A stretch of 42,682 nt of DNA, taken from a virus. Lineage: Duplodnaviria > Heunggongvirae > Uroviricota > Caudoviricetes. Positions 3,390 through 27,928 of the stretch are shown piece by piece. The position numbers and the translations under genes are program-made. Location: IMG/VR virus record IMGVR_UViG_2703718834_000012. One strand, given 5' to 3'. The first letter of the stretch is position 1; the number at the start of each line of letters is the position of its first letter. The notes beneath the pieces are model-generated. The model was not told the DNA's origin, searched no databases, and saw nothing but the letters and a program-made list of their open reading frames with translations.

Positions 3390-4528
3390 ACAAAATTCAC
3401 CCCGCCAAGCACCGGAATTTCGCCAACAGCAAAGGTGATATTGGCCGTCGGAGAGTTAAGAATATAGCCCGTCGTGCCGCTAACACCGCCGATACTCCCG
3501 TTAATATCAGAGAGGTAAACTTTCCCAGAACCATCAGGGTTAGCTTCATCAAAAAACAGCGCCGTCAGCGCGTCTTTTATCCCCTGAACTGTGGTGCTGT
3601 CGGCATTTTTGATCCCAGAGATTTCAATATTGATGACTTTCTTGATCGGGGAACATACGAAAACAATGGCAGTGTCTGTCTGCTGCGGATAGATGTGGTC
3701 GGCGACAGCGAGCTGGTCTCCGGTGGCTTTAACAGCCCCCCAGTCCTCAAGTTGGGATATTCCGTCGGTACCGACCGGAAACCCACCATTGTCATTCCGA
3801 TCACACATGATATACACGCCAACGGTCCCGGCCCCGTTCAGACGCCGCTTTACCCACGCGCGGGTGACGCCCGAAACCTCAAGCGCCCATTTTTTATAAT
3901 CGGCGTCGCTTCCACCCTGAGGCGGATTCTGCCATGCCAGCAAGCCACGACTGCGAAAATCCTCTTCCGTTTCAATATCGGCTCCGCCGGTCGCAGCGGA
4001 CAGTAACGTTACCTGTGGATCCACGCCAGCAATATTCGCGTCCAGGGTCATTATGGTCCCGGCATCAGCGTTACCGCGCGCGCCTCCACCCGTTACATCA
4101 CTGGTAATATCCGGCAGTATGGCCGTCACCGCGACGATACCAAATCCATCTGCCTGAATTTTAAGATCTGCATCCGTCCGGTACTGGTATCCGTCCCCGC
4201 GGTTAATGATCGAGCCAACAGGGATAATACAGTCAACACTGCCACTAGCCTGTACCGCAGGCGACTTCGCCGCTGCAGCTGGTTTTCTGAATACCTGCTT
4301 AAGGACCATCCACCCGGCGAGATACTCATCGGTAGAGGTAAACGGGTTTGTCTGCAGGGCAATATAGTCAAGGTAGGCGTAATGCAGATGCCCCATCCCC
4401 GCATCCATGTCAGCCAGTACCTTCAGGTTCGCGAAGCGCAGGAGCGCACCAACATCCTCAAGCTCCGCCTGCATAAATTTCCGGTTTCCGTCGCGGAGTT
4501 CGCTCAGCGTCGGTCGTTTAAACGGCAT
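3386..4528 (-). CDS. Baseplate J-like protein (Mu gp47-like)
   Basis: Trimmed to ATG 4526-4528 (MPFKRPTLSEL...) adjacent to upstream stop; size and position fit baseplate J. Confidence 0.7.
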   Translation of the reverse strand: MPFKRPTLSELRDGNRKFMQAELEDVGALLRFANLKVLADMDAGMGHLHYAYLDYIALQTNPFTSTDEYLAGWMVLKQVFRKPAAAAKSPAVQASGSVDCIIPVGSIINRGDGYQYRTDADLKIQADGFGIVAVTAILPDITSDVTGGGARGNADAGTIMTLDANIAGVDPQVTLLSAATGGADIETEEDFRSRGLLAWQNPPQGGSDADYKKWALEVSGVTRAWVKRRLNGAGTVGVYIMCDRNDNGGFPVGTDGISQLEDWGAVKATGDQLAVADHIYPQQTDTAIVFVCSPIKKVINIEISGIKNADSTTVQGIKDALTALFFDEANPDGSGKVYLSDINGSIGGVSGTTGYILNSPTANITFAVGEIPVLGGVNFV

Positions 4529-4529
4529 A

Positions 4530-4967
4530 TTAACGTTGCTCCCATATCCAGTAAAACCTGAATTCCTGCCAGTCCTTCCCCGGTGCCTGATAGCGGATAA
4601 TGAGATTGAGCCGGTCAGGCAGGACGATCCTTGCAACAGGAATAACCTCGCTGACAACGCCATCAACCTTTAACCAGTTGAGCGCTTCACTCGAGTATTC
4701 CTCCGCTTTTTTTGCTACATCCGGGGTCAGTTTTTTCCGCCGTAGCAGCCACAGCCGGGATCCCAGTTGGGATTCCTCCCCGGAATCCCCCCACCAGCCG
4801 CGGCGATCGCTATCCTCATAATCATCGTCAGCGCGCGCCAGCCTGTCGGTAAACAGGCTGTCCAGTATTGCAGTCTGTAAATCGTTCCCCGTGGTGAGTT
4901 CACCCAGCCCTTTCTGCCAGTCAGCAAACATCTCATCCACATTCCAGAATGAAGCGATGTCACTCAT
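4530..4967 (-). CDS. Baseplate protein (Mu gp46 / gpW-gp25-like)
   Basis: 145 aa; synteny within Mu-like baseplate block; start overlaps upstream gene. Confidence 0.6.
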   Translation of the reverse strand: MSDIASFWNVDEMFADWQKGLGELTTGNDLQTAILDSLFTDRLARADDDYEDSDRRGWWGDSGEESQLGSRLWLLRRKKLTPDVAKKAEEYSSEALNWLKVDGVVSEVIPVARIVLPDRLNLIIRYQAPGKDWQEFRFYWIWEQR

Positions 4968-5548
4968 GTCACCTGATCCTCTGTTTTTTGGCTGCGGATA
5001 TTGTCATTGCCACTCTGGGCATTTTTAACCACATGATCATGGTCATTATGTGCATCCCGCAGCTCTTTCAGTGTTCGGGTATTGGTTTCACAGTTATCAA
5101 CAATGTCACCCGTGCACCTCAGGATCGGGGTATTTGCAAGGATCCCCTGGCTGGCATTGATGGTCACGTTAGTGGCGTTATTGACCTCAACATTCTGGCC
5201 CTTTGCATCCAGGAAGATCCCCTTCTCCGTCAGGAGAATATTAAGGCCCCACTGGTTATACATGACCGTTTCGCCCGCTTTCAGGCCTGTATGACGGAAC
5301 CCCTGATGGTTGGACGCAATTACCACCGCGCTGGAACGATCACCGCCAATAAAAGCCAGAACCACGTCAGTCCCTGACGGCAGGCCGGATGAAAAGCCAA
5401 ATTCTGCCATCCGCGGAGCGCTGGCCACCTCCAGCGGAGTCTGGTACTGGATAGACTGCACCACCCCACCATCTTTCATAGCCGTGATCCGGCCAATCCC
5501 CAGCATGCCGGCGATCCTGGTCGCTGCATGTTTAAATAGTTGCTTCAT
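4964..5548 (-). CDS. Baseplate assembly/spike protein (Mu gp45-like)
   Basis: 194 aa; synteny; overlapping start/stop with neighbours. Confidence 0.6.
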   Translation of the reverse strand: MKQLFKHAATRIAGMLGIGRITAMKDGGVVQSIQYQTPLEVASAPRMAEFGFSSGLPSGTDVVLAFIGGDRSSAVVIASNHQGFRHTGLKAGETVMYNQWGLNILLTEKGIFLDAKGQNVEVNNATNVTINASQGILANTPILRCTGDIVDNCETNTRTLKELRDAHNDHDHVVKNAQSGNDNIRSQKTEDQVT

Positions 5549-21874: not shown

Positions 21875-22516
21875 CTATCTGGCCGAGCTGATCGCCTCAG
21901 CAATCGCCTGGTGCAGCGCTGAGGGTAACAATGCGTTGACCATGGTGTTTGCCCTGTCCATATAGCCGAGCGTTGGTTTGACTGGAAGCGCGTCTCCAAA
22001 CCGAATGAGCAATTTTGGTGCAGGTTGCTTAATCTTGTCTCTGCGCGTGCCGTTCGGAGAACGTTTTGCCCGTTTCTTCCCTTTTTTGATTTTCGGCTTT
22101 TTTCTCTGCCACACGGCATTCACGCCACCAACGTCACCAATAAATACGTTTGGCTTTGCTTTGAGCTGAGAGAGCTTATTACGCGGCAGGTTGCCGTATT
22201 TATTAAGCTTTATGTCTTTCGGATTAAGCAAAGCACTACCATTAAGCTTGTGCTCTCCGCCGAACTCGAAGGGTTCAAGGTAGCCAGCAGCAGTATCACG
22301 AACAAACACCTTCGCACGAAGGCTGTTTTTCCTGGCACCAACTGACCCTACCGATTTAACTGTAAAAGGTGTTGGATTATCCAGATTCCGCTCAAATGCT
22401 GTTTTTTGGGCCGCTTCTATCTGGCGAACCACTTTAGTCATAGCCTGGGCAGTCGCAAACGGTATTTGCTTCTGCAGCTGTCTTAACTGACTGGAAAGGT
22501 CCTTAAGCGTTGCCAT
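21875..22516 (-). CDS. Hypothetical lysine-rich late protein
   Basis: 213 aa, AGGAGG RBS; KKPKIKKGKKRAKR basic tract; between lysis genes and cos. Confidence 0.5.
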   Translation of the reverse strand: MATLKDLSSQLRQLQKQIPFATAQAMTKVVRQIEAAQKTAFERNLDNPTPFTVKSVGSVGARKNSLRAKVFVRDTAAGYLEPFEFGGEHKLNGSALLNPKDIKLNKYGNLPRNKLSQLKAKPNVFIGDVGGVNAVWQRKKPKIKKGKKRAKRSPNGTRRDKIKQPAPKLLIRFGDALPVKPTLGYMDRANTMVNALLPSALHQAIAEAISSAR

Positions 22517-22572
22517 ATCATTGACCTCCTAGTTACAGTAATTAAGATCAGTTTGCTCATAAAGTTGACAAT

Positions 22573-22599
22573 AAAAAACCGCCCGTAGGCGGTTAGTCG
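22573..22599 (-). terminator. Rho-independent terminator
   Basis: Stem ACCGCC/GGCGGT with T-run on the minus strand, at the end of CDS 22593..22997. Confidence 0.55.
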
Positions 22600-22997
22600 A
22601 ACATTTTATCAAGTTGCTTAGCAAGAGCTCGGTTAAACAGCTCCTTCGAAACTGTCATCAGCGTGCCCATACTGGCATCTTTGAATCCGGTTTTTAATGT
22701 TGCCCAAACCTCTTTGTTACGGAGAGCATCCAAGAAGTCATGCCCCATCGCGGTCAATCGCAAGGGCATTACAGCCCAGTGAGTCATTCCGTCTAAAGAC
22801 TGAATAGCACCAAAGCCGGGCTCCCCATCACTCCTGATAATCAGCCCTCTATCCTCAAGCAAACGCATATGAAACACAAATGTGTCAGTTTCACAATTGA
22901 ACCCTAAATCATTTAATCGAATAATATCGGTATCAGGTGAATCCGATGCCTCGAAAGCCTCGAGCAAACCTTTAAGGTATTCTTGATCTATTTGCAT
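22593..22997 (-). CDS. Hypothetical late protein
   Basis: 134 aa ORF downstream of Rz; no recognisable motif. Confidence 0.5.
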   Translation of the reverse strand: MQIDQEYLKGLLEAFEASDSPDTDIIRLNDLGFNCETDTFVFHMRLLEDRGLIIRSDGEPGFGAIQSLDGMTHWAVMPLRLTAMGHDFLDALRNKEVWATLKTGFKDASMGTLMTVSKELFNRALAKQLDKMFD

Positions 22998-23029: not shown

Positions 23030-23509
23030 TCAATTTAAGCACTGCTCTTTGATGTATTCCTGCAAATATCCAACCTGTTTCGTCACTGTGACGATTCGCT
23101 CTCTGAGGGTGAAATAATCCCGTTCAGCGGAGTCAGTAAGTCGGGGGCCGGTAACATCGCCCAGGCCGCCGGTGCTGGTCGCTCCGTTCGCGGGACATCT
23201 GGCGTTGACGTGCAGCCCACACTTGCCAGTGCGAACACAACGCTGCAAATCATCAAGCTGCTTTTTAGCATCAGCTAAGTCCTTCGTGTATTTGGCATCC
23301 AGCACCGCTGCATCACGCTGGCGGATCTGCATGTCTTTGATGGTGGCGTTCGCCTGGTTAAGATTCTTAATGGCTTTATCGCGCTGGTCTTTGTAGGTGA
23401 TGGCGTTGCCGCGGTAGTGGTTAATAGCCCAAGCCATGGAAACCATCAGGCATATAACGACAGCACAGATAATTGCTGTTAATCGGCTCACTAATCTAAC
23501 CCCCAACAC
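23030..23509 (-). CDS. Spanin, inner-membrane subunit (Rz-like)
   Basis: 159 aa, N-terminal TM helix then coiled-coil-like region; Rz1-like ORF embedded in +1 frame. Confidence 0.75.
23083..23271 (-). CDS. Spanin, outer-membrane lipoprotein subunit (Rz1-like)
   Basis: 62 aa wholly embedded in Rz; lipobox LASVGC; proline-rich mature part. Confidence 0.7.
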
Positions 23510-24027
23510 GCCAGCGCGCTTTCCTGGTCCCGTCTCTCAACCTGACCATAGCAGCCATTCTTCTGGCCTTTGGTTAGTCGGCAATCGCGGCCACCGTCTT
23601 TGATCCACCAGCGGATTGCTTCACATGCCCCTTTACGATCACCGGCGTTGATGCGTTTATAAAAGGTAGAAGGGAAGCATTTACCAGGACCAATGTTGTA
23701 CGGGCAGAATGAGGCAATCCCCGCTTTCTGCGGTTCGGTCAGTGGTACCTGGATATTGCGGTCGACCCAAGCCAGCGCCTTGTTCAGCTCGCTGGCGTTC
23801 ACCTGATTACATTTCTCTGGCGATAGCCTCATACCTGGGGTAACAGGCTTGCCGTCAACCGTGGTAGCTCCCCGGCAAATCGTCCAGATACCGCTGCCAT
23901 CTTTGTACGCTGTAAGGCTGTTTCCCTCTTTCTCATTCAGAAACTGATCGAGAATGACGGATGCTGGCGCACCAGCAAGTACCAACCCCAGAACAGCAGC
24001 ACTTAATTTTGCTCTGGATCCCATCAC
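23491..24027 (-). CDS. SAR endolysin (T4 lysozyme-like muramidase)
   Basis: 178 aa; Gly/Ala-rich signal-arrest-release N-terminus followed by E..D..T catalytic region, as in phage 21 R. Confidence 0.85.
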
Positions 24028-24326
24028 TCACCTTCCTTTTGTAATGCCTCAACGACCACGCTTGCAGCCGCAGGACGTTCGTGAAGGGGTTTATCACCAA
24101 CGCCTTTCAGGTAGTCATTAACCATTTTTGTTCGCTTCTCGTCCTCTCTACGCCTGCGGTGGGCATCCACGCGACCATTGACATAGGAGGCAAACGAGAT
24201 AAGCAGACCAGCGGCGCCAAAGAACATGAACACCATATCCTGAGTGGTAAAACCAATGGCTGACGCCAGAGCTGCTACCCACGCGAAGAACTGCGTGAAA
24301 ATGTTCCCTGAATCATTCATTTTCAT
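24024..24326 (-). CDS. Holin (probable pinholin, dual-start MKM)
   Basis: 100 aa, two TM helices, charged C-terminus; directly upstream of SAR endolysin. Confidence 0.7.
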   Translation of the reverse strand: MKMNDSGNIFTQFFAWVAALASAIGFTTQDMVFMFFGAAGLLISFASYVNGRVDAHRRRREDEKRTKMVNDYLKGVGDKPLHERPAAASVVVEALQKEGE

Positions 24327-24394: not shown

Positions 24395-25447
24395 TTATTC
24401 CCCTGTTAACGCCCTTATTTCCTCCACCGTCTGGCTAAACCTGTCCTCCTCGAGTTCAACGCCGATAGCCTGGCGGCCAAGTTCCAGCGCGATTTTCACG
24501 GTCGAACCGGACCCCATAAAGAAATCAGCCACCACATCACCAGGCTTACTGCTGGCGTTGATGATCTGCCGCAACATGTCAGCGGGTTTTTCGCATGGGT
24601 GTTTACCTGGGTAAAACTGAACGGGTTTATGTGTCCAGACGTCGGTATAAGGAACGGATACGGAAACAGAGAAATGCCGCCGAAGCGATTTGTACTCTTC
24701 GAGCAGCTCTGAATACTTGCGATTTAACGAATGCCACATAGCCACCAGCTGGTGGTGTGGTGTTGCCAGTTCGCCGTTCTGGTGCTTTTCGATGGCTACC
24801 TGCGTGAAAAGGGACTGAAGATTCCGGTAGTCTAATTCATTCGGTAATTGCCACTGGCTACCGCTGAACCAGTGAGACACCATGTTCTTCTTTCCAGTCG
24901 CATCGGCTATTTGTTTTGAGGTTATGCCAAGCGCTTCACGTGCATCCCGGAAATAAGAAATTAGGGGAGTCATTACATGCTGCTTCAGCTCGCTTCCCTT
25001 CTCCGCGTAACCGTCGCTCTTTGGTTTATACGGCCCCTGGTAATGCTCAGCGAAGAGGATGCGCTCTGTTGCAGGGAAGTAAGAGCGCAGACTCTCTTTA
25101 TTACAGCCATTCCAGCGGCCCGACGGTTTAGCCCAGATGATGTGGTTCAGGACGTTGAACCGCTCACGCATCATGATCTCAATGTCTGCCGCCAGGCGGT
25201 GACCGGAGAAAAGATAAAGACTGCCAGCAGGTTTAAGCACTCGCCAGAATTGTGCGAGGCACATATCAAGCCAGCGAAGATAATCCTCATCCCCTTTCCA
25301 CTGATTGTCCCAGCCGTTGGGTTTCACTTTGAAGTACGGCGGATCCGTGACTATCAGGTCAATGGAGTTATCAGGGAGAGTGGCGATGTATTGCAGGCTA
25401 TCAGCGTTGACTAACTCGACACTGTTTATATTTACAGTATTTTTCAT
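24395..25447 (-). CDS. DNA methyltransferase, beta-class amino-MTase (N6-adenine or N4-cytosine)
   Basis: 350 aa; N-terminal catalytic DPPY motif (IVTDPPYF) and C-terminal SAM-binding FxGxG (DFFMGSGST). Confidence 0.85.
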   Translation of the reverse strand: MKNTVNINSVELVNADSLQYIATLPDNSIDLIVTDPPYFKVKPNGWDNQWKGDEDYLRWLDMCLAQFWRVLKPAGSLYLFSGHRLAADIEIMMRERFNVLNHIIWAKPSGRWNGCNKESLRSYFPATERILFAEHYQGPYKPKSDGYAEKGSELKQHVMTPLISYFRDAREALGITSKQIADATGKKNMVSHWFSGSQWQLPNELDYRNLQSLFTQVAIEKHQNGELATPHHQLVAMWHSLNRKYSELLEEYKSLRRHFSVSVSVPYTDVWTHKPVQFYPGKHPCEKPADMLRQIINASSKPGDVVADFFMGSGSTVKIALELGRQAIGVELEEDRFSQTVEEIRALTGE

Positions 25448-25616
25448 AGATCAATAAGCGTAACTCTGATAGGCTCTCTTTGCTTTTGCGCTAAAGCAAT
25501 GGGCCTTGGTTAGCTTGTGACCTGAAAGCATGAGCTGATGGCTGGTGGGTGCTCCAACATCCACCAGCCGCCCATTTTCACAGCAAAATACCTCCGAAAT
25601 GGAGGTGCGAAGGCAT

Positions 25617-25645
25617 AAAAAAACCCCGCTTAAGCGAGGTTATTT
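25617..25645 (-). terminator. Rho-independent terminator after accessory cassette
   Basis: Hairpin CCCCGC-TTAA-GCGAGG followed by a T7 run on the minus strand, 12 nt after the cassette stop. Confidence 0.55.
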
Positions 25646-25656
25646 CGAATAGATAA

Positions 25657-26061
25657 TCAAGCAGCAGGTTCGGATGGATAAACCTGCTCATACATCTGCT
25701 GAAGGGTGTCAATAGCTTTGTTAGCCATTATCAATATAGCTTCCGCATCAGCCTTACTTAAAGTTCTATCAAGCTCGTAATCTGCCCATTTACGTCGGGT
25801 ATGCAAATGTCTCAGCATTGTTCCCATAGAAATGAGTTTCATTTTTTCAAACGGCTCATTTCCTTTTAACCATGCATCATTTGTAAGATAGTCGCGAACA
25901 GCTTGGTGTGACGACTTGTTTGGGCATTTCTCAAGCTTATCAAGCGTTTCATGATAAACTCCATAATACGCTCGACCAATGGCGTTTCTGTAACCGATTT
26001 CATCGTTGTGAGAAATGCATTTACCAGCAAAAACAATAAAATCTTTCCCCGATACGCTCAT
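25657..26061 (-). CDS. Hypothetical protein, accessory cassette gene 2 (possible HEPN-like fold)
   Basis: 134 aa; ATG overlaps upstream stop (TGATG); RAYYGVYHE and RRKWADYE segments reminiscent of HEPN proteins; AT-rich. Confidence 0.55.
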   Translation of the reverse strand: MSVSGKDFIVFAGKCISHNDEIGYRNAIGRAYYGVYHETLDKLEKCPNKSSHQAVRDYLTNDAWLKGNEPFEKMKLISMGTMLRHLHTRRKWADYELDRTLSKADAEAILIMANKAIDTLQQMYEQVYPSEPAA

Positions 26062-26816
26062 CAGTAAATCCCTCTTTTTTCATCGCTTTGGAACCAGGAT
26101 GTAAAAGGGCTGTTCCGATAACTATCATCTGAGAGCAAAACCAACAGTTCCATGTTCATTTCAGCTAAAACCTGCGGATCAGCAGTTTGGGCTCTAACGA
26201 TGAATGCATTGTCATCATCTCCACCAAGATAATAGCTAACACTTGAACAGTTAATACCGCGCTTGTTCGCAATCTCTTCAGCTTGATCGCAAAGGGCTTC
26301 TAGTTCTCGAGAAGAAAGACGGGTAGCGTTTTTGAAATCAACAATCTGTTCAGCCATATAATTTCCCTGATTGATTATATCCTCTCGCTCTTGGCCATCA
26401 TAAAGAGCAGCCATTTTGAGGGAGAACTTTTTAACCAACTTGTCGTTGCCGATACAAAATGCAGCGTTTCTTGCTACAAGCCTCAGTTCATGTGAAGGGA
26501 AAAGCTCAACTATTCTAAACAACTCAACGCGATGCTCATAGTTATGAGCCGAACGAGAAAGATACGCCAAGTAGTTTTGTGCGATCGTTGGACTCCCAGA
26601 GCTCATCGCGTCTTTGAATAAACGTACTGCATCAGAGTGACGCCCGAGAGTTCCATTAAGCCATGCATACGCATGTGCGCGCTCACTTATTGGAAGTTTA
26701 GCAATGTCGTGCTCAATTTCCGCAATAGTGTCTGTATCCGGGACTTCTCCCTTCTGGAAGTAATCGAGGATTGTTGCAAGCAGTTCTTGTTCTTTTGACT
26801 CAGGCTGTCCTGACAT
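26061..26816 (-). CDS. Hypothetical protein, accessory cassette gene 1
   Basis: 251 aa; AT-rich codon usage unlike neighbouring phage genes; no signal peptide or known motif. Confidence 0.55.
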   Translation of the reverse strand: MSGQPESKEQELLATILDYFQKGEVPDTDTIAEIEHDIAKLPISERAHAYAWLNGTLGRHSDAVRLFKDAMSSGSPTIAQNYLAYLSRSAHNYEHRVELFRIVELFPSHELRLVARNAAFCIGNDKLVKKFSLKMAALYDGQEREDIINQGNYMAEQIVDFKNATRLSSRELEALCDQAEEIANKRGINCSSVSYYLGGDDDNAFIVRAQTADPQVLAEMNMELLVLLSDDSYRNSPFTSWFQSDEKRGIY

Positions 26817-27162
26817 AATTTTCCCGAAGAAAACTAAATTCTGTATGTTTTCAATAGCTTCACTGGATAGGTTTTTATATTGCTGTCATCAGTATTGAAG
26901 CTTTTACGGGATTGTACAGGACCATCAGCGTTCTACTTGTGCATAAGAATTTAATAAACCTACAGACTTATCCACAGAAAAAAGAGTTATCAACAAAAAA
27001 AGTTATTCACAACTTAACTAATAGCAAAATATTGTTGATAAGCTGTGCGTAATTATCATATCCATCAAACTTACGCACATTAGAGCCTTGTGTTGCCTAT
27101 CCATCGTTTTTTCCTATCAAAACGAAACGACATGCTTTTCTGCGATTAAAAAAGTATTCCGC

Positions 27163-27193
27163 AAAATTAAAAAACCCGCTCACTGGCGGGTTT
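27163..27193 (-). terminator. Strong rho-independent terminator downstream of Q-like gene (tR'-like)
   Basis: 8-bp stem 27172-27179/27186-27193 followed by TTTTTTAATTTT on the minus strand. Confidence 0.6.
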
Positions 27194-27226
27194 ATATACT
27201 GTTGGCACAATATCAAATTTACACGA

Positions 27227-27255
27227 AATATATGCTAATTAGTTCATTTTTGCAA
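27227..27255 (-). promoter_or_regulatory. Candidate late promoter (pR'-like)
   Basis: Minus strand TTGCAA-N17-TATATT straddling the Q stop codon, about 40-50 nt upstream of the terminator. Confidence 0.3.
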
Positions 27256-27928
27256 TACCTTGCTGATAGTTTGCTGCCTTTTGTTGTGAACGTGATCGCG
27301 AAACATGAAGTAGCGCCTTGGAGTCGAGTCCCTTATACAGGCTGATAATTACATTGTAATGTTCCACGTAATTTTGAGACCAGTTTGTTTTGTTAACTCC
27401 CACCAGCGCAGCCAGATCACCATATTGATAGACATCACGCCCAGCCAATTCAGCCTTCACATCCTGTGCCGCCAGCCAGATAAGCTGTCGCAACCGTTCG
27501 ACGGTCTTCTTCGCCACCTTCCTCCCGGCCAGATGCTCGCAAAATTTCGACCACGCCCACTGAGTAATCAGCACCTGATTATCCCAACTCACATTCTCGC
27601 TATAGTTCCATAGCAACCAGGCCTTCTGGTGTTCTTCGAGCGTCATCAGTGCGCGGCGCCACGATGCCGTTGAATACTCAACCGGTTGCACCAAGGGAAT
27701 ATGCGAACCCTTGGTATGCGACTGTTTGCCGGGAATCGGTGGGTTATCAAGCGTAATCATTTTCCCGGTCACTTCATCCAATATTCGAGGCTTCTTACGT
27801 TTAAACGTTCCCGTATCAAACTGCGCGTTCTCAAGCCACGCCATCAACTGCCCTTTCGTCGCACCACTTAAATCGGCGGTAGCCACCATCAGCTGCTGGC
27901 GCACGTATTCGAGGAATTGAGTGTTCAT
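27239..27928 (-). CDS. Putative late-gene antiterminator (Q-like)
   Basis: 229 aa; sits between RusA and the late operon; recalled resemblance to Q-family antiterminators. Confidence 0.5.
   Translation of the reverse strand: MNTQFLEYVRQQLMVATADLSGATKGQLMAWLENAQFDTGTFKRKKPRILDEVTGKMITLDNPPIPGKQSHTKGSHIPLVQPVEYSTASWRRALMTLEEHQKAWLLWNYSENVSWDNQVLITQWAWSKFCEHLAGRKVAKKTVERLRQLIWLAAQDVKAELAGRDVYQYGDLAALVGVNKTNWSQNYVEHYNVIISLYKGLDSKALLHVSRSRSQQKAANYQQGIAKMN

Follow-up and report, generated by a model that had tools for sequence, protein, structure and literature searches.

A mobile TPR-HEPN gene pair in the Q-to-lysis slot of a prophage, a possible toxin-antitoxin-like or abortive-infection module

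Introduction

What do two small AT-rich genes do that stand between the late-gene activator Q and the lysis genes of a prophage, in the slot where Shiga toxin (Stx) phages carry stx? The question is raised by the IMG/VR prophage record IMGVR_UViG_2703718834_000012 (Caudoviricetes), a stretch of 42,682 nucleotides (nt), the whole of which is called the window here. The two genes, which we call A and B (coordinates in Table 1), were first noticed in a reading of the sequence alone. This sequence-only reading took the pair for a candidate defense or toxin module, offered a restriction-like role together with a downstream DNA methyltransferase (MTase) as an alternative, and found no motif that it could name in either protein. 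Here, we report that A is a tetratricopeptide repeat (TPR) protein, that B is an HEPN-fold protein, and that the two form an obligate, phage-borne pair carried on a discrete and mobile cassette. We judge the chances to be about even that A-B acts as a toxin-antitoxin (TA)-like or abortive-infection (Abi) prophage module.

Results

Fold and family of the A and B proteins

A is a TPR protein whose C-terminal domain is small, novel, and of the alpha/beta type. In the AlphaFold2 (AF2) model of A (mean confidence score, pLDDT, 87.3), eight paired helices at residues 8 to 136 form an N-terminal TPR array, which is followed by two long helices (residues 141 to 184) and by a beta-beta-alpha-beta C-terminal domain (residues 190 to 244) that ends in an invariant PFTSWF strand. 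An exhaustive hidden Markov model search gave a family of 71 cluster representatives, mostly ~250 to 260 amino acids (aa) long. When 59 relatives were scanned, the Pfam matches were to TPR-type repeats only, ten of them to TPR models, and the family profile matched consensus TPR proteins with E values down to 1e-9. The protein thus has tandem helix-turn-helix repeats that match TPR profiles. Two full-length structural analogues of A were found in uncultured siphoviruses (BFVD; E values of 3e-6 and 7.5e-5). We also considered A as a hidden nucleotidyltransferase (NTase) and rejected this candidate, as A has no GSX10DXD motif, no NTase fold, and no match to Pfam NTP_transf_2.

B is an HEPN-fold protein of the PF05168 (HEPN-T, class II) type, an assignment to which both structure and family profile lead. 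The AF2 model of B (pLDDT 93.7) has five helices, and its top Foldseek matches were AF0298, SsR10, TT1696, the sacsin HEPN domain, ST0689, Csm6, HepT, and AbiV. The profile of the B family matched the PDB entries 9xbd and 9xbc, both named "HEPN domain-containing protein," with E values of 3e-5 and 1e-4, respectively. Eight of 24 B relatives matched the Pfam HEPN model PF05168 (best E value, 1.5e-5); eight of the 24 also matched the PADLOC model PDC-M05B, the HEPN component of the candidate system PDC-M05 (best E value in the family, 8.7e-5), and three matched HEPN_IX.

The residues that are invariant in the 24-member B family include R25, N26, R30, Y32, Y33, H37, H52, R90, D94, and Y95, and R25, R30, H37, H52, R90, D94, and Y95 are kept even in B partners that are 35 to 37% identical. 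The segments RAYYGVYHE and RRKWADYE, in which the sequence-only reading had seen a faint hint of HEPN RNases, proved to be the invariant core motifs of this HEPN-fold protein. Y95, invariant in the family and in the distant partners, is the tyrosine beside the active-site motif, at the position that is AMPylated in HEPN/MNT modules.

Both proteins can therefore be named, contrary to what had been concluded at first, A as a TPR protein and B as an HEPN of the PF05168 type. The same domains appear in the automatic UniProt names, "Tetratricopeptide repeat protein" and "HEPN domain-containing protein"; RefSeq lists both proteins as hypothetical. AlphaFold and Foldseek, which had been suggested as a check on both proteins, returned the TPR array and C-terminal domain for A and, with weak E values, HEPN for B. 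Single-sequence searches were uninformative. The A and B proteins of the window gave nothing significant in Pfam or NCBIfam, they matched only PHROGs families of "unknown function" (17809 and 5176, the latter being B), and a single-sequence PDB search of the pair returned noise only. In a tblastn search of 50,697 phage records, A found nothing and B found three records.

Pairing of A with B and genomic contexts

A and B form an obligate pair that is carried by phages. In the loci that we inspected (L004-L008, L011-L013, L016-L020, L022-L024, and L027), each A homologue, down to ~17 to 24% identity, is followed directly by a B homologue, either overlapping or 3 nt apart. Loci found via either protein all carry both genes, even where A is ~17 to 24% and B 35 to 37% identical (hhalign E values of 1e-26 to 1e-32). 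Two small adjacent genes that always occur together, overlapping or 3 nt apart, were seen in all inspected loci, which is the arrangement of a type II-like TA operon. In the window, the stop codon of A and the start codon of B share one base (...TAC TGA TG AGC..., hence TGATG), and the Shine-Dalgarno (SD) sequence AGAGGG for B is located upstream of the ATG of B, within the 3' end of A.

The pair was found in at least five prophage accessory slots in Escherichia coli, Enterobacter, Morganella, Erwinia, Klebsiella, and Vibrio. The Q-to-lysis slot holds it in E. coli, Enterobacter hormaechei-type, Enterobacter ludwigii-type, and Morganella prophages, and the Rz-to-terminase slot holds it in L016 and L017. 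In Erwinia and a relative, it lies at the prophage edge beside tail-fiber/baseplate genes, next to the host focA/ccm genes; in a widespread prophage, it lies in the tail/immI (Arc-Ant) region; and in Klebsiella phage Chronis (gp57-gp58), it lies in the nin region. A Vibrio P2-like phage carries it between the portal side and the phage replication gene A. This slot is consistent with the cos-adjacent antiviral hotspot of P2-like phages described by Rousset et al. (PMC9122126), with the position of cos itself not located.

The MTase gene that follows the pair in the window is not its constant neighbor. A-B is present without any MTase in L004 (Morganella), L007 (Erwinia), L008, L011 (Enterobacter), L016-L019, L022, and L023, while the MTase is present without A-B in L014 (a prophage of strain Nissle 1917) and L015. 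The restriction role that had been suggested for the pair is thus not borne out: because many A-B loci have no MTase, co-occurrence rules out A-B as the restriction or specificity partner of the downstream enzyme. A type II-like restriction-modification (R-M) system made of A-B and the MTase would explain why the pair adjoins an N6/N4 MTase and why it always stands before this MTase in E. coli and Enterobacter hormaechei-type prophages. However, each occurs without the other, the match covers the 5' flank of the MTase gene only in 30 of the 42 E. coli genomes that have one, a terminator and a compositional break separate A-B from the MTase, and neither A nor B has an R-M-type nuclease fold, so that an R-M system is most improbable.

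Mobility and composition of the cassette

A-B is a discrete, compositionally foreign, and horizontally mobile prophage moron in the Q-to-lysis accessory slot. A megablast search of 5426 complete E. coli genomes found the unit from position 25596 to about 27190-27219 in 12 of them, at 99.4 to 100% identity. Three different Q genes precede these 12 copies, and behind one of the three a tRNA-Thr lies in between. Most of the matching E. coli genomes (30 of 42, Nissle 1917 included) match positions 25450-25595 only, the 5' flank of the MTase gene, and the cassette is absent from closely related prophages. The identity breakpoints relative to other E. coli prophages, 27190 and 27219, fall within or just upstream of the terminator-like hairpin that follows Q. 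Even at the sensitivity of blastn, the AT-rich leader in front of A was never seen apart from the cassette: it had matches in the same 12 E. coli genomes and none in the plasmids searched.

In the same Q-to-MTase slot, the Nissle 1917 prophage L014 (positions 3649-5127) carries two small open reading frames (ORFs) beside a gene for an "SDH family Clp fold serine proteinase," and L015 carries a 63-aa gene alone. The alternative cargo in L014 shows that the Q-to-MTase slot is a variable hotspot.

The composition of the two genes deviates in the same direction. Gene A has a GC content of 0.44 and a third-position GC content (GC3) of 0.39, and gene B has values of 0.41 and 0.36, while the genes that flank the pair have a GC content of 0.50 to 0.57 and a GC3 of 0.52 to 0.59, and the whole window has a GC content of 0.51. 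The spacer from the Q stop codon to the start of A (26817-27238) is 422 bp long with a GC content of 0.33; once its first ~70 bp, which hold a promoter-like site and a terminator, are subtracted, a leader of ~355 bp is left. With regard to the marks of a moron, the cassette is a discrete insertion of deviating composition that close relatives do not have. Its own terminator is clear, and on the promoter side this lineage has a conserved TACAAT without a -35 element. The hairpin and T-run that end the cassette were also found, read by eye, after B in L011, L016/L017, and L008.

On the anatomy of the locus, the sequence-only reading was confirmed throughout. It had described two coupled genes of 251 and 134 aa with a TGATG overlap, to which we add the minus strand, and had placed them between Q and the lysis genes, in the stx slot. 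It had also called them more AT-rich than the backbone (GC3 of 0.36 to 0.39 versus 0.52 to 0.59), preceded by about 350 bp of AT-rich noncoding DNA (the ~355-bp leader, ~33% GC), and followed by their own terminator (25641-25622), and all of this held. Its view of a foreign two-gene cassette in an accessory slot is supported by GC3, by the presence in 12 of 5426 genomes, and by the three Q types behind which the mobile unit stands.

Conserved elements of the leader

The leader contains a cluster of sites for the replication initiator DnaA. The DnaA-box consensus TTATNCACA has three exact matches in the 42.7-kb window, all of them within 74 bp of the leader, and four one-mismatch boxes lie at positions 26987-27079. 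Three or more perfect boxes occurred in 0 of 20000 shuffles of the AT-rich leader itself. When four leader variants (the window, L030, L024, and L027) were aligned, the order box TGTGGATAA, 21 bp, box TTATGCACA, 21 bp, CTGTACAAT was invariant, and so were the ~15 nt that directly follow CTGTACAAT (A.AAGCTTCAATACT). The exact composite pattern has 5 occurrences in 2.9 million IMG/VR contigs, all of them in front of A-B, and no match in genome contigs sampled at one genome per species. The conservation of the DnaA boxes with TACAAT in this leader is a new observation. In a further observation, an inverted repeat at 27044-27079, TGTGCGTAA...TTACGCACA, with perfect 9-bp arms 18 nt apart, consists of two one-mismatch DnaA boxes and is partly conserved in L024, L027, and L030.

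TACAAT is a candidate -10 element, and a DnaA box is centered near -38 relative to this putative promoter. We propose the promoter because of these phylogenetic footprints and not because of a sigma-70 scan. The consensus matches and their conservation suggest that DnaA may modulate the cassette promoter. In the more distant loci L007, L008, and L011, a good sigma-70 match, GTGACA-N16-TGnTA[CG]AAT, is located 71 to 78 nt upstream of A.

Two further elements stand between Q and the leader. A sigma-70-like site that overlaps the 3' end of Q is a candidate for the late promoter P_R'; L024, L027, and L004 have an equivalent element, TTGCAA...CATATT, after Q. The strong terminator behind it, the hairpin of which is kept in L024 and L027 with compensatory stem changes, is a candidate tR' and would insulate the cassette from P_R' when Q is absent. 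The positions of the promoter-like site and the terminator right after Q fit P_R' and tR', and the two are likely a very short P_R'-tR' unit.

Searches for other features of the leader were negative. No Rfam family reached its gathering score in the leader, the best being GcvB (25.6 of 42 bits) and Trp_leader (23 of 41 bits), both of which overlap terminators; no tRNA was found; the folding of the leader was not exceptional (z score, -1.45); and none of its small ORFs was conserved. A 20-nt block, TTTGATAGGAAAAAACGATG, is near-invariant across the four variants, which are 54 to 63% identical overall, and the ORF that follows this block is 28, 3, 7, or 5 codons long depending on the variant and is thus not conserved.

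Layout of the locus

Every gene in this part of the window lies on the minus strand (Table 1). A second accessory slot, between Rz and terminase (21875-22997, minus strand), has a local GC content down to 0.42 to 0.47. It holds a gene for a DUF2513 protein (22593-22997; Pfam E value, 2.5e-10) and one for a 213-aa protein (21875-22516) without a Pfam match. Prophage L001, which has the same A-B cassette, carries a YfbU-family gene in this slot instead.

Table 1. Features of the A-B locus in the window, in order of transcription
Feature	Position	Strand	Remarks
Q antiterminator gene (late-gene activator)	27239-27928	minus	PF06323, E value 1e-97; upstream of A-B
Sigma-70-like promoter TTGCAA-17-TATATT, candidate P_R'	27227-27255	minus	Overlaps 3' end of Q; 9/12 in consensus scan
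Strong intrinsic terminator AAACCCGCCAGTGAGCGGGTTT + T-run, candidate tR'	27165-27193 (hairpin 27193-27172)	minus	~30 nt past the promoter-like site
AT-rich noncoding leader	26817-27171	minus	~33% GC; travels with the cassette
20-nt block TTTGATAGGAAAAAACGATG	27102-27121	minus	Resembles SD + ATG; upstream of the putative cassette promoter
Perfect DnaA-box consensus site TTATTCACA	27003-27011	plus	
Perfect DnaA-box consensus site TTATCCACA	26968-26976	plus	
Perfect DnaA-box consensus site TTATGCACA	26938-26946	minus	
TACAAT, candidate -10	26911-26916	minus	21 bp downstream of the proximal DnaA box; 94 nt upstream of the ATG of A
Gene A	26061-26816	minus	251 aa
Gene B	25657-26061	minus	134 aa
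Intrinsic cassette terminator AACCTCGCTTAAGCGGGGTT + T7	25615-25641 (hairpin + T7 at 25641-25622)	minus	15 nt past the B stop codon
Second short hairpin, at the left insertion junction	25590-25606	minus	Backbone common to cassette-free prophages starts at ~25595
N6/N4 DNA MTase gene	24395-25447	minus	Downstream of A-B
100-aa ORF in holin position	24024-24326	minus	Label from ORF order; the identical RefSeq gene is hypothetical
Lysozyme gene	23491-24027	minus	Label from RefSeq annotation of related prophages and ORF order
Rz-like ORF (DUF2514)	23030-23509	minus	Label from RefSeq annotation of related prophages and ORF order

Discussion

Comparison with known systems

In its working, A-B may be most like an HEPN/MNT module. 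In such modules, the HEPN protein is the toxin and the upstream gene encodes the antitoxin (PMC7641770, PMC3710099). B shares with the class II modules (PF05168 with PF01909; PADLOC PDC-M05) the signature sRAYY...H...R-x3-DY, the size, and the place as downstream gene of an overlapping pair, and its C-terminal tyrosine is at the position AMPylated in class I HepT toxins (PMC7641770, PMC3710099, PMC12988326). The pattern of B is the one that Table 1 of Anantharaman et al. 2013 (PMC3710099) gives for a part of the PF05168 HEPNs, with the words "D replaces conserved H... have a conserved H elsewhere." The partner is different. A is a TPR array with a novel alpha/beta domain and has neither the GSX10DXD motif nor the fold of a nucleotidyltransferase; therefore, neutralization by AMPylation cannot apply as such. 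A-B is also found in prophages of Enterobacterales and Vibrio rather than in chromosomes of archaea or thermophiles.

The combination of an HEPN protein with repeats of the TPR or Sel1 type has precedents in AbiU2, which is in an operon with a Sel1-repeat gene, and in LA2681, which is fused to or in an operon with a TPR (Anantharaman et al. 2013, PMC3710099, Table 1). Like A-B, these pair an HEPN effector with a repeat protein and are predicted Abi or TA-like conflict systems. Unlike B, these families keep the RX4-6H motif. Neither the Pfam nor the PADLOC models for AbiU were matched by B or its 23 relatives; the family closest to B is PF05168.

An experimental precedent is HepS of Salmonella Gifsy-1, a solo HEPN abortive-infection protein that is inactive until a component of the infecting phage appears (PMC13043305). 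Compared by description, HepS is likewise a small HEPN protein in an accessory slot of a lambdoid prophage, where it protects the lysogen. It is however a single gene with a canonical R100-x4-H105 and no partner, whereas A-B has an obligate TPR partner and a noncanonical motif. With the stx-type morons of lambdoid phages, A-B shares the Q-to-lysis slot, foreign composition, an own terminator, a probable own promoter, dispensability, and exchange between phages. Its cargo is an intracellular TPR-HEPN pair and not a secreted toxin.

That A-B might nevertheless be virulence cargo like Stx, a toxin that is secreted or aimed at the host and set free at lysis, is suggested by the shared slot, but we consider this as improbable as the R-M system and both as effectively excluded, since neither protein has a signal peptide or membrane segment by inspection (the hydrophilic N termini agree with what had been read from the sequence at first), both models are soluble helical folds, no toxin family matches, and the hosts include environmental and plant-associated genera, e.g., Erwinia and Vibrio.

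A possible mode of action

Taking the observed anatomy, composition, fold and family assignments, pairing, mobility, MTase independence, and leader conservation as the starting point, we infer a scheme in which toxicity of B, its neutralization by A, the sensing of a trigger, an anti-phage effect, promoter activity in the leader, and control by DnaA would each have a part. B would be the effector, a small HEPN-fold protein that has R90-x3-D94-Y95 in place of the canonical RX4-6H, with H37, H52, R25, and R30 perhaps completing an RNA-cleaving or RNA-binding site. A, encoded in the position of an MNT antitoxin, would bind B and keep it inactive. The groove of the TPR array could be the receptor for a protein or peptide that an infecting phage supplies as the trigger, and binding of this trigger would release or activate B, so that translation is arrested and the invader is blocked.

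Expression would follow the state of the prophage. In the lysogen, the tR'-like terminator would shield the cassette from the late promoter, and transcription would come from the cassette's own weak promoter (TACAAT), possibly modulated by DnaA via the two conserved boxes. When the phage itself grows lytically, the cassette would be transcribed by read-through of Q-modified polymerase.

Small characterized members of the HEPN fold family are RNase toxins or effectors. With an HEPN protein in B and a TPR protein in A, the TA-like overlap with the SD of B inside A, the strict pairing, the varied accessory slots, and the moron signature all support a TA-like or Abi module. If it is one, its character is probably that of abortive infection, and defense is more likely than pure addiction.

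Several results weigh against such a module. No direct homology ties A-B to defense, and PADLOC has no model for A or for the pair. Against PADLOC-DB v2.0.0, A had no match and its 59 relatives had scattered single matches, and the B protein of the window matched only PDC-M05B, at a marginal E value of 0.012. The PADLOC search that had been suggested as a check thus did not strengthen the case. Many type II antitoxins have a DNA-binding domain; A has none. The Foldseek scores of B are weak (best E value, 0.056; TM score, ~0.5), and the B protein of the window has no Pfam match by itself. The canonical RX4-6H motif is absent from B, in which R90-K-W-A-D94-Y95 has Asp for His and no His follows 4 to 6 residues on. 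Class II HEPNs have no RX4HXY motif, and it is to such proteins that Yao et al. give the class II name (PMC7641770). In the literature, we found no PF05168-class HEPN with a reported RNase activity. Because there is no RX4-6H and no such report, B could be noncatalytic. On the side of expression, the cassette promoter of the window has no recognizable -35 element, and a generic sigma-70 scan called no minus-strand promoter inside the leader. Of the initial proposal of a defense or toxin module, therefore, the TA-like architecture and the movement among prophage slots speak in favor, and the PADLOC results, with nothing for A and a marginal match for B, speak against. A literature search on the two RefSeq accessions, PDB 9XBD, and TPR with HEPN in defense found no paper on A-B.

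Alternative functions

The main rival, which we consider unlikely, is a function that benefits the phage in its own lytic growth. B would then be a noncatalytic RNA or nucleotide binder and A a TPR adaptor, and the pair would act in host takeover, in counter-defense, or in the regulation of late genes or lysis via the Q-dependent late transcript. Several points would suit this function: the cassette is part of the late operon, through which Q-modified polymerase would read; its own promoter in the window is weak; B has no RX4-6H; and an inactive or regulatory state is assumed for many HEPN domains that are fused or of the PF05168 class (PMC3710099). However, the other slots are not late-transcribed alike (the tail-fiber edge, immI, nin, and the P2-like slot next to replication gene A), and in the distant loci the pair has its own strong sigma-70 promoter and its own terminator. 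The set of invariant polar residues in B is suggestive of an active site, and the cassette is dispensable, being missing from closely related prophages.

A plain addiction (TA) module that stabilizes the prophage or the cassette, without anti-phage activity, is somewhat less probable again. The TA-like architecture and the HEPN effector would fit it equally, and the spread over many prophage slots is like that of a selfish unit. On the other hand, all sampled copies are in prophage accessory slots, one of them at the expected P2-like antiviral hotspot (PMC9122126; cos not located), and the TPR partner is more sensor-like than a labile antitoxin. The roles of addiction and defense are not mutually exclusive.

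Returning to the TA-like or Abi module, its most specific form would be an undescribed phage-borne Abi system, in which a TPR keeper with a new C-terminal domain, standing in for the nucleotidyltransferase, controls an R-x3-D-Y HEPN through a phage-sensing groove, and in which expression in the E. coli/Enterobacter lineage is wired to DnaA boxes that replace the -35 element. We put this forward tentatively, as a possibility that we rate above either alternative function and below the module in its general form.

Significance

HEPN-based two-gene modules in prophages are an expected class, and A-B is a cheap and good experimental candidate within it. If it is inert or purely selfish, A-B is an ordinary moron. 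If it is active, PF05168-class HEPNs, which are abundant and biochemically obscure, can be effectors without a nucleotidyltransferase partner, and a TPR protein can assume the role of antitoxin or sensor. Temperate phages of Enterobacterales and Vibrio would then shuttle such a module among five or more accessory slots. Should the DnaA-box promoter prove functional, it would tie an accessory gene of a phage to the replication status of the host, an unusual link. An active A-B would be a compact 1.2-kb addition to the prophage-encoded immunity repertoire and a tractable system for the function of R-x3-D-Y HEPN proteins.

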